From Escherichia coli (lineage in GTDB: Bacteria; Pseudomonadota; Gammaproteobacteria; Enterobacterales; Enterobacteriaceae), in the NCBI RefSeq assembly GCF_016903815.1, contig NZ_CP069971.1: a stretch of 48,644 nt of DNA; one strand, given 5' to 3'. Below, piece after piece: positions 4,561 to 48,306 of this stretch (position 1 is the stretch's first letter; every line of letters begins with the position of its first letter). The position numbers were made by a program, and so were the translations under genes. Under the pieces are notes generated by a model that had not been told where the DNA came from, ran no database searches, and saw only the letters and a list, made by a program, of their open reading frames with translations.

Positions 4561-4585
4561 AAGCGGGCTAACGCCCGCTTATATG
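4561..4585 (+). terminator. intrinsic terminator hairpin
   Basis: AAGCGGGC-TAAC-GCCCGCTT followed by a T-rich stretch. Confidence 0.5.
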
Positions 4586-4589
4586 ATTA

Positions 4590-4683
4590 TAGATTTATAT
4601 AATTATATAAAACGCTTTTCATCCGCCAAAAAGTTGGTTATGCTTACCTCGTTCTATAAATATAGATTTATAGAATTATATAA
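4590..4683. repeat. two AT-rich composite sites (ATAGATTTATA + TATAATTATATAA) upstream of parA; candidate centromere/operator
   Basis: 4590-4610 ...tagatttatataattatataa and 4661-4683 tatagatttatagaattatataa. Confidence 0.5.
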
Positions 4684-4706: not shown

Positions 4707-5360
4707 ATGACTATCTCTGTAGGTATTTTCAACGGAAAAGGCGGCGTAACCAAATCAACAATTGCCCGTGCTTTAGCAGTTGCTTATGCAAAGGCTGGCT
4801 GGAATGTATGCCTGATCGATATGGATGTGCTTAACGGAACGGTAACGCGTTGGGTACAACGCAGAATGGCCAACAATATCGAACCAGCAATCGCGGCGCA
4901 GCCGTGCGGCACACCATCACAAGTCCAGAAAATCATCGAATCAGAAGTATACGACCTGGTTATCGTCGATGGCGGTGCCTACGCATCTGAATCAGTACCG
5001 AAGCTCTCTGAATTTCTGGATATGGTTATTTTGCCAACCAGATTCTCTACCGATGACCTGGAAACCACCGTTAACACAGCTCACGGCATCGTTAAAAAGG
5101 GTGTACCAATCAAGAAAATTTGCATGGTGTTTTCCGGCGCGGCTGAAAACGAAGCTGACTATATTGAAGCCCAAGAGTACCTGGCTAATACGCCATACTT
5201 TGTTGTCGATAAGTACATTCCCCACAAGCCAGCTCTGAGCAAAGCTCAGGATAAGGGCTTAAGCCTTATTGAGTGCTCATACGTTGCGCCACGCAAAAAG
5301 GCAGACGATGTTATCCAGGGGATTATCAATCAGCTTGAGGCTCTGACTACTGCCGCGTAA
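4707..5360 (+). CDS. parA: ParA-family partition ATPase (deviant Walker A)
   Basis: MTISVGIFNGKGGVTKSTIA...CLIDMD; GGAG RBS about 10 nt upstream of the ATG at 4707 (the ORF track starts at an upstream in-frame ATG, 4692). Confidence 0.8.
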   Translation: MTISVGIFNGKGGVTKSTIARALAVAYAKAGWNVCLIDMDVLNGTVTRWVQRRMANNIEPAIAAQPCGTPSQVQKIIESEVYDLVIVDGGAYASESVPKLSEFLDMVILPTRFSTDDLETTVNTAHGIVKKGVPIKKICMVFSGAAENEADYIEAQEYLANTPYFVVDKYIPHKPALSKAQDKGLSLIECSYVAPRKKADDVIQGIINQLEALTTAA

Positions 5361-5391
5361 TATATAATTATAGTTTTATAGATTTATATAA
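5361..5391. repeat. AT-rich palindromic site between parA and the ParG-like gene
   Basis: tatataattatag ttt tatagatttatataa, the same motif family as at 4590-4683. Confidence 0.45.
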
Positions 5392-5403
5392 AAGGGGATA
5401 CAC

Positions 5404-5652
5404 ATGGCCGCACCATCAAAACCACCGAAAAAGAACAGCAAAGGCGTACCGCCATCAATCGAACAACCGCAGGTTTTCGACCCGACTGAAACGCCGACCA
5501 GAACCAAATCAGGTGGGGCACAAATGGCGTTTAACGTCGACCCTGAATTTAAACGCGAGTACAAAACGTTCGCCAGCTCAATGGATATGTCATTGAAAGA
5601 AGTGCTGACAAAATCTTTTGAGTTACTCAAGGCTCAATACAACCAGAAGTAA
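5404..5652 (+). CDS. small partition/centromere-binding protein, ParG-like (predicted ribbon-helix-helix)
   Basis: 82 aa; flexible basic N-terminus and C-terminal MAFNVDPEFKREYKTFASSMDMSLKEVL, RHH-like; immediately downstream of parA. Confidence 0.55.
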   Translation: MAAPSKPPKKNSKGVPPSIEQPQVFDPTETPTRTKSGGAQMAFNVDPEFKREYKTFASSMDMSLKEVLTKSFELLKAQYNQK

Positions 5653-5874: not shown

Positions 5875-5900
5875 AAAAAAGGCCCCCGAAGGGGCCTAAT
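5875..5900 (-). terminator. intrinsic terminator (GGCCCC-CGAA-GGGGCC, T-run on minus strand)
   Basis: Perfect GC hairpin flanked by an A6 run on the plus strand, i.e. T6 on the minus strand; lies between convergent genes. Confidence 0.65.
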
Positions 5901-5902
5901 CG

Positions 5903-6022
5903 CTACTTGCTGCTAATGTTTATCGTCACATTCAGAGCGTTATCAGTAATCTTCCAACCCTCCCCATGTGGCGTAAACAAAGCTCCAGTAACAACGATAA
6001 AAATACACATACAGTATTTTTT
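5903..6022 (-). CDS. small hydrophobic peptide (about 40 aa), function unknown
   Basis: MKKYCMCIFIVVTGALFTPHGEGWKITDNALNVTINISSK with an AGGG RBS, ending at the terminator hairpin. Confidence 0.3.
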   Translation of the reverse strand, partial: KKYCMCIFIVVTGALFTPHGEGWKITDNALNVTINISSK

Positions 6023-6423
6023 CATTGTATGGCCCTTACAGGCCGTTTCACGGCATCCCCACCGACGAAAACAACGCGAGAGCAAGCACGGCTGCTTGTG
6101 CTTGCATGTACGGCAACGGAGAATCCTCCCCTAAAGTCGGTGCCCGGGTGCGAATCGGCGGGAAGGTCCACAGGTATTTTACGATTATTTTAAGATTAGT
6201 TATAGGAAAGAAATTAAACGAAAAAACTCGTTTATTTTCACAAAATCAGTAACCTACCCACAATCTGTGAGTTTGCAGGCACAACAAGAACCACAATTTT
6301 ATGAAGCATAATAGTGGACTATTATTACCTTTTGGGTAAAATTAACTTGCTGCTTGTGCTTGCGTGGTTGTTTATACAACAACGTAATGCTGAAAGGACC
6401 GCGAATCCGATCAGCACGAAAGA

Positions 6424-6483: not shown

Positions 6484-6593
6484 TGTCTCTGTTAAAATCC
6501 CGCCGTATTGACATAAATGCGCCATTGGTGGACACTTTCCTAGCCGTAGCAAAATCTACGGTCGGGATTGGAACCCCGTAGACACAATGGCGC

Positions 6594-6616
6594 ATACCGC
6601 GTTAGCGGTTTTTTTA
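6594..6616 (+). terminator. second terminator-like hairpin in the antirepressor leader
   Basis: ACCGC-GTTA-GCGGT followed by T7. Confidence 0.45.
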
Positions 6617-6781
6617 TGCGTAAAGCACTGCTACACCCAAATTATGGTGGGGCGTGCGGGGGAGTCGTAAGACTCGCCGGTTCGTCATTGTGTCCGGTAG
6701 TTCCAACCCTGCACGTCTCACCACCCAATGATTGGAACCTGACGGTGGTGAGTATCCTTAACCTTTAAGGGAATCATCACA

Positions 6782-6973
6782 ATGACAAACCTACCCCATG
6801 ACTATTACGTCAACCTCGTAAAGATCCTTCTCAAGAAAGCCTCATACGCCGATAAATTCCGCCTGGCTGAAATAATCGAGCGCGAAGCTATGCGCATCGC
6901 CAGCAACGATAACGCTGTTTCTGTCGCAAAAATCTCCCTCGTAACCAAAGTAGTTATGGGAGGTGCAAAATGA
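6782..6973 (+). CDS. small protein translationally coupled to the antirepressor gene
   Basis: 63 aa; its stop overlaps the ATG of the next gene (ATGA overlap at 6970). Confidence 0.45.
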   Translation: MTNLPHDYYVNLVKILLKKASYADKFRLAEIIEREAMRIASNDNAVSVAKISLVTKVVMGGAK

Positions 6974-8151
6974 AAACGCTTCCGACCGTTAACACCCTAC
7001 AGCCTATCCTGCATAACCAGATCCCCGTTATCACTACTGAACTACTGGCGCAATTGTATGGAACCGAGCGCCAACGTCTGACGAACAATTTCAATAGAAA
7101 CAAGGAACGTTTTATAGAAGGTAAACACTTTTTTAGGATAGAAGGTAAAGAGTTACGAGAGTTGAAGAACAAAAACTCTTTAAGAGTTCCTGTGAGAGTA
7201 GTTAACGAACCATCTTTAAGAGGGTTACAAATTCCCCCGAAAGTTCGCTCCCTCATCCTCTGGACAGAACGCGGGGCTGCACGTCACGCCAAAATGCTTG
7301 AAACTAACCAAGCGTGGGATGTGTTCGAACGGCTGGAAGACTGCTATTTCAGCCAGAACGCGCAAACGGCCGCGACCGTAACCGTCTCGCCAAGCAATGC
7401 TCGTGAGGTTGTTGATACGCTCAACGCCAAACCAATGTATTACGTTAAGGTGTGCAATAACGAGCCACTCACAACCTCAGCCGATGTTGCCCAGGCATTC
7501 AGCACCACAAACAATTCCATCGTTATGGCCATCGATGCGTTACGCATTCCTCGCACAGCTGCGGCGCGTCATTTCTTTAAAGAGCAACGACCGTTGGAAG
7601 GAAGCGACCGCGAAATAACAATCTATCGCATGACAAAAGACGGATTTACCTTGCTCATGGAAAGTATCGACGGTCCAAGCGTGAAGGATATCAAGCTGGC
7701 CTACATTGAAGCTTTTAACGCTATCAGCAGCGTGTTAAAGGCAGAATACGAGCGAATACTATACAACCGACTGTATCAGGAAACAAAGATTATCCGAACG
7801 GCAACAGAACATCATCGGCTATTAACGGAACCAAACTACCGCAAGACACTAATCAAAGAGTTTGACAAAGCGACGGAGAAAACTAAAGCGGCACTAAATC
7901 TACCAACAATGACTAAGGATGATGTGATATCAGCCTTACTTCTTGATCTACTCAGAAACGCCAGAGCACTTATAAGCTTTGACGAAAACCTGAATCCTCA
8001 GCTCAAGCTACTACCACCGACAGGCAAAGTAGTCGACCAGGCTGATCACAACAGCATACTCAGCGTTCTGGATGCAAACCTGCCAGCCAGGACACTACAG
8101 GAACTGATAAAAATATCTGCGGATAAACTGGCCGCAGGTGCAAAACCATAA
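6970..8151 (+). CDS. antirepressor-like protein (ORF6N/KilA-type N-terminal domain)
   Basis: 393 aa; N-terminal ...NNFNRNKERFIEGKHFFRIEGKELRELK...LILWTERGAARHAKMLETNQAWDVFERLEDCYF matches the ORF6N-type antirepressor pattern as I recall it. Confidence 0.6.
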   Translation: MKTLPTVNTLQPILHNQIPVITTELLAQLYGTERQRLTNNFNRNKERFIEGKHFFRIEGKELRELKNKNSLRVPVRVVNEPSLRGLQIPPKVRSLILWTERGAARHAKMLETNQAWDVFERLEDCYFSQNAQTAATVTVSPSNAREVVDTLNAKPMYYVKVCNNEPLTTSADVAQAFSTTNNSIVMAIDALRIPRTAAARHFFKEQRPLEGSDREITIYRMTKDGFTLLMESIDGPSVKDIKLAYIEAFNAISSVLKAEYERILYNRLYQETKIIRTATEHHRLLTEPNYRKTLIKEFDKATEKTKAALNLPTMTKDDVISALLLDLLRNARALISFDENLNPQLKLLPPTGKVVDQADHNSILSVLDANLPARTLQELIKISADKLAAGAKP

Positions 8152-10173: not shown

Positions 10174-10285
10174 CGGGTTATCTCCGGTTTAACCAGGGCG
10201 GGTATCGCTCGGTTTCGGGTATAACCTTAGGAAATTTTTTCCCACCTGTAAAGCACTTTTTATATAAATCTATAATTATATAAAT
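10174..10285 (-). promoter_or_regulatory. conserved promoter-leader cassette, copy 2
   Basis: Identical to copy 1 over about 103 bp. Confidence 0.6.
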
Positions 10286-10374
10286 AATAGTAACTGGTGT
10301 TTTTTTAGGCGAAGCATTAAACATTTTTGTTTAGCTTATTGGCAAGGTCTTGAAAAAGACATTTCAGCAATGCT

Positions 10375-41875: not shown

Positions 41876-41987
41876 CGGGTTATCTCCGGTTTAACCAGGG
41901 CGGGTATCGCTCGGTTTCGGGTATAATCATAGGAAATTTTTTCCCACCTGCAAAGCACTTTTTATATAAATATATAATTATATAATT
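41876..41987 (-). promoter_or_regulatory. conserved promoter-leader cassette, copy 3 (four substitutions relative to copies 1 and 2)
   Basis: tatctccggtttaaccagggcgggtatcgctcggtttcgggtataatcataggaaattttttcccacctgcaaagcactttttatataaatatataattatataa. Confidence 0.6.
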
Positions 41988-42575
41988 CTATGCCACTTGC
42001 CAGAGAGCATCATGCAACTGGATACCTCCATTGCACTGGTTGCCCCAGCCATGCCAACCATCAGGTAAATCACCGCGAGCAAACAGCTCAATACGAGGAA
42101 CATCACCTAACAGCCTTACCAGCTTGTCACGAACCACATCAGGCTTCCGAGAATGCTCCAGACGAGGCGATGTAAACGACTGAATGATCCCCGCATCAAG
42201 GCGGGTCGGCAATTTGCCTTTTACCGCAAACAAGCAATCTTCACTGTTTGCACGAGTCATATGCCCCATCCCCATCACCAGCTTATCTGGTTGTCGGCTA
42301 CCACATTTGTTCCATGTGAAGCCCTTCATGGTCATAAGCCTGAATCCCCATGCTTTCACCACCAGCAACGCTTCTTCTGGCTGAGTCGGAACCCACCACA
42401 TGGCCAACAAACACGATTCAGGATTAGCAAGCTGCCAGACAGGAATACGAGCAATATCCTCAGCTTTCATCGTTGGATACTTAAAACCAGCTCCACGATT
42501 CCCATCCTTACACTTATCTTTGTATTCCCAGGGGGGATCTGCATAAATCAGATTAAACAATGCAATTGCCTCCAT
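41988..42575 (-). CDS. MT-A70-family DNA N6-adenine methyltransferase
   Basis: 195 aa; LIYADPPWEY and ...SRKPDVVRDKL... motifs. Confidence 0.75.
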   Translation of the reverse strand: MEAIALFNLIYADPPWEYKDKCKDGNRGAGFKYPTMKAEDIARIPVWQLANPESCLLAMWWVPTQPEEALLVVKAWGFRLMTMKGFTWNKCGSRQPDKLVMGMGHMTRANSEDCLFAVKGKLPTRLDAGIIQSFTSPRLEHSRKPDVVRDKLVRLLGDVPRIELFARGDLPDGWHGWGNQCNGGIQLHDALWQVA

Positions 42576-42883
42576 GTTAGTTGTGCCTCCGGCGCTGATC
42601 TCCGGCAGTCATAACGCTGGCCAGCTCTACAGCAGACACAACGAAAAGGGCACTAACCAGACTGATTAATGCCCTTGCCTGTTGTGTGCCGGATATCGCC
42701 CGACAACGCTGTTTTGGTAACACGGCTACAGTTCCGTGCCGCTCCAGCTTTTACCCCTTTGCGGATAACAGGCCCTGCCTGTAACTTAGCCCCACGTTCG
42801 CCCGAAATGCGCACCAGGCACGCATAAAGATGAGCACGAAGGAAGTAACTCCACCGCGCTTATCTTTATGTGTGAGAGTGAAT

Positions 42884-42959
42884 TGGTGGCCCCTACCGGA
42901 TTTGAACCGATGACCGTGCGATTATGAGTCGCCTGCTCTAACCACTGAGCTAAGGGGCC
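42884..42959 (-). tRNA. tRNA with CAU anticodon (Met or Ile2-type)
   Basis: 76 nt; GGCCCCTTAGCTCAGTGGTTAGAGCAGGCGACTCATAATCGCACGGTCATCGGTTCAAATCCGGTAGGGGCCACCA; cloverleaf folds by eye, encoded CCA end. Confidence 0.8.
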
Positions 42960-43100
42960 ATATTTGATCTGTTTGTCTGGTGTGGCGCCGCGCACGAAAA
43001 TCCCAGCCAATAAATTCAGGATTTTTGGGCGCGGCGGCATATCAGACAAACATGGTTGATGCGTGCGCCCATGAGAAAAGCGCATAGAATGTTGTAACTA

Positions 43101-43130
43101 TATATTTATATAATTATAGAAATATATATT
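43101..43130. repeat. AT-rich palindromic site (tatataattatag) upstream of the tRNA
   Basis: Same motif family as at the par locus and the cassettes. Confidence 0.45.
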
Positions 43131-43338
43131 ACTTTCGGCAGTTGATTTCCCATGCCCTGTTATGAGCCAGAATATCTTTCTTTGTCTGGCGGTCCATAAC
43201 ATCGATGTCGTGATCAGTCAGGTAGATGGGCTTTACCCAATCACAGGCGGTATCAACCACCACCGGGACGCTTCCACGACTCCCGCAGCTCGCGATCAAC
43301 ATCGTCATCAGCCATATGGTTAACACTCTGCTGTACAT
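43129..43338 (-). CDS. o-spanin-like lipoprotein (Rz1-like)
   Basis: 69 aa; lipobox-like LIASCGS; overlaps the 3' end of the i-spanin-like gene in another frame. Confidence 0.5.
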   Translation of the reverse strand: MYSRVLTIWLMTMLIASCGSRGSVPVVVDTACDWVKPIYLTDHDIDVMDRQTKKDILAHNRAWEINCRK

Positions 43339-44748: not shown

Positions 44749-44782
44749 AAAAAAAAAGCCCCGCCGAAAAAGGCAGGGCTTC
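44749..44782 (-). terminator. intrinsic terminator immediately upstream of the holin RBS
   Basis: Minus strand GAAGCCCTGCC-TTTTTC-GGCGGGGC followed by T9. Confidence 0.6.
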
Positions 44783-47961: not shown

Positions 47962-48260
47962 GCCACAGCCCCTCTCAACGGCTTAACTTTGGCTAATAAG
48001 GTGTTAAACAACATGGAGTTAGGGTTCATGCCAAATGGCAATTCCGGTTTAGCGGAGTAGTACAGGCAACCATTTATTTTCCTGGTTGTTATCTGTCCTT
48101 CGGCAACCATGCTTCTCAGTCTGCAACGCATAGAGTTCTGCGACACACCAATGTGCTCCGCGATTACGTCCACTTTTGAACATGGGTGATCGGTCAGGAA
48201 ATTAATCACATCTTGGGGGTTAATAATTTTGCGTTTCATTGTCGAGGCGTCCTTATACAT
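47958..48260 (-). CDS. putative winged-helix DNA-binding protein (PapI/FaeA-like)
   Basis: ...INFLTDHPCSKVDVIAEHIGVSQNSMRCRLRSMVAEGQITTRK... Confidence 0.4.
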   Translation of the reverse strand: MYKDASTMKRKIINPQDVINFLTDHPCSKVDVIAEHIGVSQNSMRCRLRSMVAEGQITTRKINGCLYYSAKPELPFGMNPNSMLFNTLLAKVKPLRGAVA

Positions 48261-48261
48261 T

Positions 48262-48285
48262 TATATAAATATATAATTCTATATA
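48262..48285. repeat. AT-rich palindromic site (tatataaatatataattctatata)
   Basis: Same motif family as the other seven copies. Confidence 0.45.
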
Positions 48286-48306
48286 CGGCGGGAGACATCC
48301 CGCCGT
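48285..48306. terminator. hairpin ACGGCGGGA-GACA-TCCCGCCGT
   Basis: Perfect 9-bp stem between two minus-strand genes; no clear T-run. Confidence 0.4.

Follow-up and report, generated by a model that had tools for sequence, protein, structure and literature searches.

A P1-type tRNA-Ile2 gene as optional cargo in the structured leader of an orphan MT-A70 methylase gene of an enterobacterial phage-plasmid

In this work we have examined a 48,644-nt stretch of DNA from Escherichia coli (contig NZ_CP069971.1; the whole of it is called the window below), and in particular a tRNA gene with the anticodon CAU, the gene of an MT-A70-family adenine methyltransferase which follows it, and the non-coding sequence in which the tRNA gene is embedded. 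Along the minus strand the lysis cassette is followed by the tRNA, the methylase and then a late operon with small genes, ParB-like proteins, terminase and others, and phage genes flank the tRNA on both sides, the lysis cassette on one and the methylase with the late operon on the other. A preliminary description made from the sequence had delimited the pair correctly, since 41988-42959 runs from the stop codon of the methylase gene to the 5' end of the tRNA on one shared strand. It had also placed the tRNA immediately upstream of the methylase gene; upstream it is, but 308 nt (42576-42883) lie between the two. The 520 nt from an AT-rich array upstream of the tRNA to the methylase start form a non-coding, strongly structured sequence whose folding z-score is -6.1. 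In plasmid copies RefSeq already labels the pair as tRNA-Ile and MT-A70. The positions of all features are collected in Table 1.

Table 1. Features of the tRNA–methylase region, of the rest of the window and of related elements (positions are those of the window unless a contig is named)
Feature	Position	Strand	Basis or remark
tRNA-Ile2 gene, anticodon CAU, encoded CCA, P1 trnI lineage	42884-42959	-	ARAGORN, Rfam
MT-A70-family (beta-class) N6-adenine methyltransferase gene, orphan, 195 aa	41988-42575	-	Pfam, PHROG, motif
Conserved AGTTACAACATTC, proposed initial transcribed sequence	43087-43099	-	invariant in four leader types
Imperfect 5' hairpin, 34-nt arms, 83 nt	42970-43052	-	inverted repeat; 10 nt upstream of tRNA 5' end
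56-nt hairpin	42819-42874	-	inverted repeat; 9 nt downstream of tRNA 3' end
Block C, three small hairpins, non-coding	42678-42811	-	leader-type alignment
Terminator-like hairpin, then UUUUCGUUGUGU	42636-42676 (scan: 42646-42676)	-	terminator scan
Block D, terminator-like hairpin to methylase start	42576-42635	-	small CCGG/CCGG hairpin beside Shine-Dalgarno
AT-rich operator-like array, about four 8-bp-period TATA(T/G)AWW units	43092-43135	.	inverted repeats, motif search
All arrays	819-859, 4579-4613, 4655-4683, 5357-5393, 10255-10295, 41956-41992, 43092-43135, 48252-48286		
Array + promoter cassettes, near-identical	780-860, 10215-10295, 41917-41992	-	ending AAAAAGTGCTTTACAGGTGGGAAAAAATTTCCTAAGGTTATACCC; each heads a different operon
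Array 41956-41992, then sigma-70-like promoter TTTGCA, 17 nt, TATGAT	41917-41992	-	heads downstream late operon
82-aa protein gene after parA	5404-5652	+	91% identical in Salmonella relative
ryfA	5875-6171	-	Rfam match above gathering score
isrK and C4 antisense RNA	6543-6615, 6640-6728	+	Rfam matches above gathering score
M2 RNA, about 135 nt, multi-stem	L005 3106-3255; L013 8180-8329; L029 1836-1985; L117 2478-2627; L119-L183		

The window is a circular phage-plasmid of 48.6 kb. A segment of 1.5 kb around the tRNA and methylase genes was found at 98-99.8% identity in 47-51-kb circular plasmid records of 67 complete E. coli genomes; the same segment occurs in plasmids of E. albertii, E. fergusonii and K. 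aerogenes, and the sequenced virion genomes of three phages isolated on Yersinia pestis have it as well. There are about 60 near-identical plasmids, and E. coli ATCC 25922 is host to one of 98% identity. The annotation of a near-identical circular plasmid lists RepA, ParA, a RelE/ParE toxin–antitoxin pair and a CI-like repressor together with a complete P2-like myovirus morphogenesis set, holins, a GH108 endolysin and Rz/Rz1 spanins, and it contains no integrase. It is because plasmid functions are combined with phage genes, without an integrase, that we regard the element as a phage-plasmid. Its G+C content is 44.3%, compared with about 51% in a sample of E. coli K-12. We found no description of this plasmid family in the literature. 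The sequence from the array to the methylase, referred to here as the leader, was compared in four types, namely that of the window, that of the Salmonella relative pAR-0407-1 (L005), L013, which is a close variant of L005, and L029; together they represent three independent clades.

The tRNA gene is the only one which ARAGORN calls in the window, with the anticodon CAT, and the Rfam tRNA model RF00005 matches it with 67 bits (E = 1.6e-12, gathering score 29), so that its fold is accepted by both scanners. The label "Met" given by ARAGORN is merely the literal reading of CAT; RefSeq calls the identical gene tRNA-Ile, a name common to the plasmid copy and its chromosomal relatives. Identity to the chromosomal tRNA-Ile(CAU), a gene present in 5423 of 5426 E. 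coli genomes, is 89.5% (68/76 nt). The preliminary description had likened the acceptor, D and anticodon arms to those of ileX and had seen differences in the variable and T arms besides a G-A mismatch in the anticodon stem, and the alignment bears this out: positions 1-42 are identical to the tRNA-Ile(CAU) of E. coli K-12, and the eight differences (positions 43, 44, 49, 50, 51, 59, 63 and 65) are confined to the end of the anticodon stem, the variable loop and the T arm. In pairs 49:65 and 51:63 both partners are altered with pairing retained, whereas the change at position 43 gives G27·A43 in the phage tRNA as against G27·U43 in the host. The identity elements of IleRS, which we take to be A73, U12:A23, C29:G41 and the anticodon loop, are all present. 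The loop itself, CUCAUAA, is unchanged with respect to K-12 ileX and ileY, and the acceptor stem GGCCCCU/AGGGGCC retains C4:G69 and C5:G68, which are major identity elements of E. coli TilS and discriminate against tRNA-Met (PMC11947777). The gene thus shares with ileX and ileY the acceptor stem, the D arm, most of the anticodon stem, the whole loop and the TilS pairs, but differs from them by its eight substitutions, by being borne on a phage-plasmid and by lying within a structured leader. Judged by these features it is a genuine tRNA-Ile2 of the ileX type, carried by a phage, and not a tRNA-Met.

The nearest relative of this tRNA, however, is not the host gene but trnI of the P1-family phage-plasmids, with which it shares 73 of 76 nt (96%). 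Like the window tRNA, trnI of P1 and P7 has a CCGG/CCGG T stem and is carried by an enterobacterial phage-plasmid. A43, and hence the G27·A43 mismatch, is also common to the P1-type genes, and for this reason the mismatch is a trait of the phage-plasmid tRNA lineage rather than a sign of decay. What the earlier view took for a diverged phage copy is more aptly described as a member of the P1-family trnI lineage. The context of the two genes is different, since similarity is absent from the flanks and the match consists of the tRNA plus about 5 nt. In P1, trnI follows tciA-tciB-tciC and precedes ban, and the tRNA genes are close to dmt (PMC10695390); the P1 methylase, Dmt, is of another family than the MT-A70 enzyme of the window. 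Within the plasmid family itself the tRNA varies only by C13T, A26T and A59G. An open reading frame of 99 aa (42786-43085, minus strand) which runs across the tRNA and the 5' hairpin is an artefact of open reading frame listing and no gene.

The assignment of the methylase is based on Pfam PF05063 (residues 7-180 against positions 1-172 of the 172 of the model, E = 3.9e-23), on phrog_359 "DNA methyltransferase" (1e-102) and on the catalytic motif IV, DPPW, at residues 13-16 (IYADPPWEY, residues 10-18), which is conserved in L005 and L029. Its nearest relatives in the PDB are the ciliate DNA 6mA enzyme MTA1 and METTL3. No restriction endonuclease gene adjoins it; on one side are the tRNA and the Rz/Rz1 spanins, on the other small hypothetical genes which belong to the late operon. 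The annotated ATG may be wrong and the true start may be a TTG at 42560, which has GGAGG 8 nt upstream and would give the N-terminus MFNLIYADPPW, as in the homologues of Salmonella (L005) and L029; in other homologues the alignment begins only at residue 6-7. Identity of 73-78% over nearly the full length of the protein was found with PhiV10p33 of phiV10 and with the methylases of Stx2 phages (e.g. P13374 gp37), which are likewise orphan MT-A70 adenine methylases of temperate enterobacterial phages. The genes of these enzymes differ from that of the window in belonging to the early-left operon near int/xis, where they overlap the upstream gene by a few nt, and neither in phiV10 nor in the Stx2 phages did we find a tRNA or a leader beside them. 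A conserved methylase–tRNA synteny in other phages, which we had also considered, was dropped because of its absence from phiV10 and the Stx2 phages. M.EcoGII, which we had likewise considered as a model, was set aside, for this enzyme of 349 aa is a different one and relevant for the general principle only (PMC5778455).

The leader is composed of several elements which follow each other in a constant order around a variable middle. At its upstream end the conserved AGTTACAACATTC lies 5 nt downstream of a -10-like hexamer, TATAAA/TATAAT, within the array, and a putative promoter can be placed at this hexamer. The 5' hairpin has 28 pairs in the consensus fold of the four leader types, three of them with compensatory changes, and is a candidate for a processing stem (of the RNase III type) or a regulatory one. 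The 56-nt hairpin on the other side of the tRNA has a 3' arm homologous to an arm of a larger stem in the relatives. Across the leader types identity is 90-94% in the core of Block C and 94-97% in Block D, compared with 72-83% in the methylase coding sequence, and that the leader should be more conserved than the gene which it precedes is a useful by-product of this analysis. The terminator-like hairpin between the two blocks shows an identity of 25-27%, but changes on both sides of its pairs keep the stem, and its U-rich tail is invariant; RNAalifold pairs Block C with Block D across it. The array (80-93% conserved over the four types), the 5' hairpin, Block C, the terminator-like hairpin and Block D are present in every leader type. 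Because these types amount to only three independent clades, the support for the structure is modest, and for the window's own leader it is suggestive rather than strong. A scan of genome contigs for further types gave one chance match, metagenomes contained only E. coli-type copies, and a third scan of viral sequences brought nothing new.

We also asked whether the leader could contain known RNAs or small proteins. In a scan with Rfam 15 the tRNA alone passes, and the SAM/SAH riboswitches and GOLLD/ROOL were unmatched; a similarity to rydB in the leader and Block D is sub-threshold (22-29 bits against a gathering score of 50), and matches to microRNA-like families are a reflection of the long hairpin. 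The open reading frames of the spacer (48 and 53 aa on the minus strand and one of 52 aa antisense) were rejected as coding: their starts and frames are not conserved across the leader types, and the substitutions in them are 2 synonymous against 4 non-synonymous. In Block C, L029 has an indel of 1 nt, which is located in the loop of a hairpin. GOLLD and ROOL are large non-coding RNAs of phages which can lie near tRNAs or contain them. The region described here resembles them in being a long structured non-coding region of a temperate phage with a tRNA inside, but it differs in having no match in Rfam and in being a modular leader of a protein-coding gene.

It is in their middle part that the leader types differ. 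In the window this part holds only the tRNA; in L005 it holds two other modules and no tRNA, in L013 four modules and no tRNA, and in L029 two modules, a tRNA(CAU) and a part of another module. The tRNA of L029 is 86% identical to that of the window. It has A27·C43, pair 31:39 and the T stem show compensatory changes, and its acceptor stem and anticodon loop are the same as in the window tRNA. Since the stems changed in a compensatory manner and the acceptor stem and loop were kept, this pattern of divergence indicates selection for a working tRNA-Ile2. We conclude that the tRNA is an optional cargo module of the leader, without an obligatory partnership with the methylase. Because the leader types vary in this way, and because the phiV10 and Stx2 homologues do without both tRNA and leader, the pairing of the tRNA with the methylase is a local arrangement and not a conserved functional couple.

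The unit is bracketed by two AT-rich arrays. The preliminary description had noted an AT-rich palindromic site just upstream of the tRNA. The site is real and directly follows the stop codon of Rz1, where it overlaps the proposed promoter of the tRNA and leader, but it is not specific to this unit, since the window contains eight such arrays in all, and the motif search returned 14 matches where 0 were expected. The parA promoter has an array on either side, and a further one separates parA from the gene of an 82-aa protein. The arrays near 825, 10255 and 41956 are each followed by a near-identical cassette with a sigma-70-like promoter, and those at 43092 and 48252 overlap a site at which a promoter has to be located. 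The array and cassette at the downstream end of the methylase gene, from which the late operon starts, mark the end of the tRNA–methylase unit, and the two genes, standing between two operator-like arrays, would form a separately controlled segment. The arrays occupy the same relative positions in the Salmonella relative. We had also considered a mobile cassette with terminal inverted repeats of 32 nt (41962-41993 and 43082-43113). This was dropped because the repeats are simply two of the eight genome-wide arrays and are found in the same places in the Salmonella relative.

What could a phage-plasmid gain from such a tRNA? Codons were counted with the same procedure of picking open reading frames in the window and in a 50-kb sample of K-12. 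AUA occurs 17.1 times per 1000 codons in the whole window (26% of the Ile codons) and 23.6 times per 1000 in its tail/baseplate block, compared with 5.9 per 1000 (10% of the Ile codons) in the K-12 sample; the major capsid gene has no AUA codon. The comparison of codon usage supports the suggestion of a rare-codon decoder, AUA being about three times enriched in the element, and the direction of the enrichment fits a role in codon supply. The Salmonella relative pAR-0407-1, which has no tRNA anywhere on the element, uses 13.2 AUA per 1000 codons overall and 16.2 in the tail block. Related phage-plasmids with or without the tRNA, differing in AUA usage and living in a genetically tractable host, offer a natural comparison, and one which would be a clean way to test whether phage tRNAs pay for themselves.

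The preliminary description had regarded the tRNA and the methylase as one unit. In favour of this are the shared strand, the two bracketing arrays and the scan for sigma-70-like promoters, which called none between the two genes; against it are the terminator-like hairpin between them, the two of four leader types in which the tRNA is absent or replaced, and the phiV10 and Stx2 homologues, which have neither tRNA nor leader. The idea of one unit finds only partial support. We consider it probable, though with clear reservations, that the region, which lies between the lysis cassette and the late packaging operon, is an array-bracketed unit in which the tRNA-Ile2 decodes the AUA codons of the element, the methylase is gated by the hairpin and the tRNA is optional cargo. 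In such a unit host RNase P and the 3'-end processing enzymes would excise the tRNA from the leader transcript, host TilS would turn C34 into lysidine, and IleRS would charge the product, which would then read AUA, a codon three to four times commoner in the element than in host genes, especially in the tail/baseplate genes. The methylase would be made solely from those transcripts which pass the hairpin, and it would act on adenines of the element's DNA, most likely for evading restriction in the next host. Of this picture the identities of the genes, their anatomy and conservation, the codon bias and the plasmid context were established here; promoter position, co-transcription, processing, lysidine modification, the target and role of the methylase and the array-binding protein are inferred.

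Several observations weigh against this reading. The consensus scan does not call the promoter upstream of the tRNA. Between the tRNA and the methylase stands a terminator-like hairpin whose U-rich tail is conserved, and for this reason the two products may be uncoupled. AGA and AGG are enriched about threefold as well, yet no tRNA-Arg is carried, Ile(CAU) being the sole tRNA. Furthermore, pAR-0407-1 remains at about 13 AUA per 1000 codons without any tRNA, and trnI of P1 was found to be non-essential in a CRISPRi screen (PMC10695390). It follows from these last two points that the translational benefit of the tRNA is modest and that the tRNA is clearly dispensable.

Other explanations of the tRNA have to be considered as well. 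Could it simply be the host ileX or ileY at the junction of an integrated prophage, with only the methylase being borne by the prophage? Its first 42 nt are those of the chromosomal genes, and tRNA genes are common integration sites. Nevertheless, the segment is found on circular plasmids and in three virion genomes, phage genes lie on both sides of it, no integrase is annotated, and the chromosomal ileX/ileY locus lies between mug and nfeF with flanks unrelated to the window. These facts refute the host junction, the alternative which the preliminary description itself had named as fatal to its reading, and leave it next to no chance. It could also be that the tRNA serves mainly in counter-defence or as a replacement, sustaining the decoding of AUA when the tRNA-Ile2 of the host is cleaved or depleted during induction or infection. 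Phage tRNAs which rescue translation from host anticodon nucleases are documented; the tRNA studied here differs from the host's in the T arm, the variable loop and at 27:43 while keeping all determinants of charging and modification, and the relative without a tRNA manages a similar AUA load. However, apart from 27:43 the whole anticodon arm is that of the host, and because the loop is identical, a nuclease reading it would cut the phage tRNA too. Moreover, we know of no nuclease which targets tRNA-Ile2, and the enrichment of AUA is a simpler reason for carrying the gene. A replacement role as the main function is in our opinion unlikely.

Is it possible that the tRNA is chiefly a signal for RNase P, separating the lysis mRNA, the leader RNAs and the methylase mRNA, and that its decoding is secondary? 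Such processing of leader RNAs is established for the C4 RNA of P1 and the CI RNA of P4, and an RNA of the C4 family is encoded elsewhere in the element; the leader is highly structured, a long hairpin stands on either side of the tRNA, and in the relatives the slot is occupied by other structured RNA modules. On the other hand, the IleRS and TilS determinants and the CCA were kept in two versions of the tRNA which are 86% identical and differ by compensatory changes, and because these determinants persist in diverged versions, selection would seem to act on decoding and not on a mere cloverleaf shape. We therefore think it improbable that processing is the chief purpose. A functional coupling of the two genes, in which the MT-A70 enzyme would methylate the tRNA or the leader RNA instead of DNA, could be suspected from their adjacency on one strand and from the fact that the closest solved relatives include the RNA m6A enzyme METTL3 besides the DNA 6mA enzyme MTA1. 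It is hardly compatible with homologues of 73-78% identity in phiV10 and the Stx2 phages which have no tRNA or leader at all, nor with the two leader types of the family (L005 and L013) which lack the tRNA, and bacterial and phage members of the family are annotated as DNA methyltransferases; we regard this coupling as very improbable.

One more phage tRNA decoding AUA and one more orphan methylase, both already in RefSeq, change little, and the pair is ordinary, correctly annotated phage cargo; it is the surrounding non-coding architecture that is unexpected. Going beyond the AUA-decoding, array-bracketed unit favoured above, we hypothesize that phage non-coding RNAs may be expressed and processed on a dedicated platform, namely the region of 0.5-1.1 kb between array and methylase, composed of a long promoter-proximal hairpin, a slot for interchangeable structured modules and a near-invariant riboregulatory block whose hairpin gates the methylase. 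This idea is tentative, and we are more inclined to doubt it than to accept it. If it is true, the tRNA would be one of several RNA cargoes, and the leader and the module M2 would be undescribed RNA elements.

M2 is absent from the window, and in the relatives it is located within or beside the slot which in the window holds the tRNA. At least 67 viral contigs contain its core, AAAACRGAGCGGCGGGAARTAAGC. In 30 sequences the 38 predicted pairs of the M2 fold are 96.8% paired, compared with 25-48% in slid controls; 15 pairs show compensatory changes, in 115 cells, and 500 shuffles never equalled the real alignment, either in covariation score or in the number of compensatory pairs or cells. No Rfam family matches M2. 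A widespread, covarying phage RNA without an Rfam family is another useful by-product of the work. Outside the slot, M2 was found in long intergenic gaps, for example between the genes of a CI-like repressor and an RdgC-like protein, and in a Serratia phage-plasmid it stands at a different intergenic site; it is not generally adjacent to tRNAs. In the Serratia marcescens plasmid p2 (L117, CP083756.1) the Rfam tRNA model scores 46 bits over the 127 nt at 2234-2360, so that a tRNA-like sequence enlarged by an insertion of about 50 nt is indicated. It is not called by ARAGORN, and it is situated in a non-coding gap of 1.2 kb, just upstream of the M2 copy. In the Leclercia plasmid pZ96-1_2 (90 kb) a tRNA-Val(AAC)-like gene adjoins a tRNA(CAU) gene (L118, 1765-1930), and the two are located about 570 nt upstream of a diverged M2-like sequence.

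Which protein could bind the arrays? The product of the gene after parA is a protein of 82 aa with a basic, proline-rich N-terminus, for which AlphaFold2 predicts a disordered tail and two C-terminal helices (pLDDT >90); it has no match in Pfam, NCBIfam or the PDB. ParG of TP228 and omega of pSM19035 are ribbon-helix-helix proteins which bind the centromere in type Ib partition and double as global repressors. The system of the window resembles theirs in having a small protein with a basic tail encoded after parA, and repeat arrays at parA and at other promoters. It differs in that the protein has no similarity to them in sequence or in Pfam, and in that further arrays are located here at phage lytic promoters. 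By this analogy the 82-aa protein is a candidate for a regulator of the ParG/omega kind which would bind the arrays, and the arrays are putative operators of a plasmid-partition regulator which also sit on lytic promoters. Their presence at both parA and the promoters of lytic operons suggests that a single regulator links plasmid partition with the lytic control of the phage, a hint of joint wiring in this family of phage-plasmids.

Rare-codon tRNA genes in the late transcription unit of a temperate coliphage, a tRNA-Ile(CAU) gene among them, are a feature shared with the Stx phage 933W, in which ileZ-argN-argO lie between the late promoter and terminator and the stx and lysis genes. The window has instead a single tRNA, located downstream of the lysis genes, and the search among phages gave no close sequence match to Stx phages. 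Upstream of the lysis genes, about 20 nt before the first holin gene, we observed a hairpin resembling a strong intrinsic terminator (44755-44782, minus strand; 11 pairs followed by nine T). Because of its position before this gene, transcription of the lysis and late genes may depend on antitermination. Elsewhere in the window ryfA was recognised by Rfam, as were isrK and the C4 antisense RNA, both of which lie just upstream of a gene with an ORF6N domain, antirepressor-like, at 6970-8151. This set is an antisense immunity module like immI of P1 and P7, present here in a phage-plasmid which is not P1.

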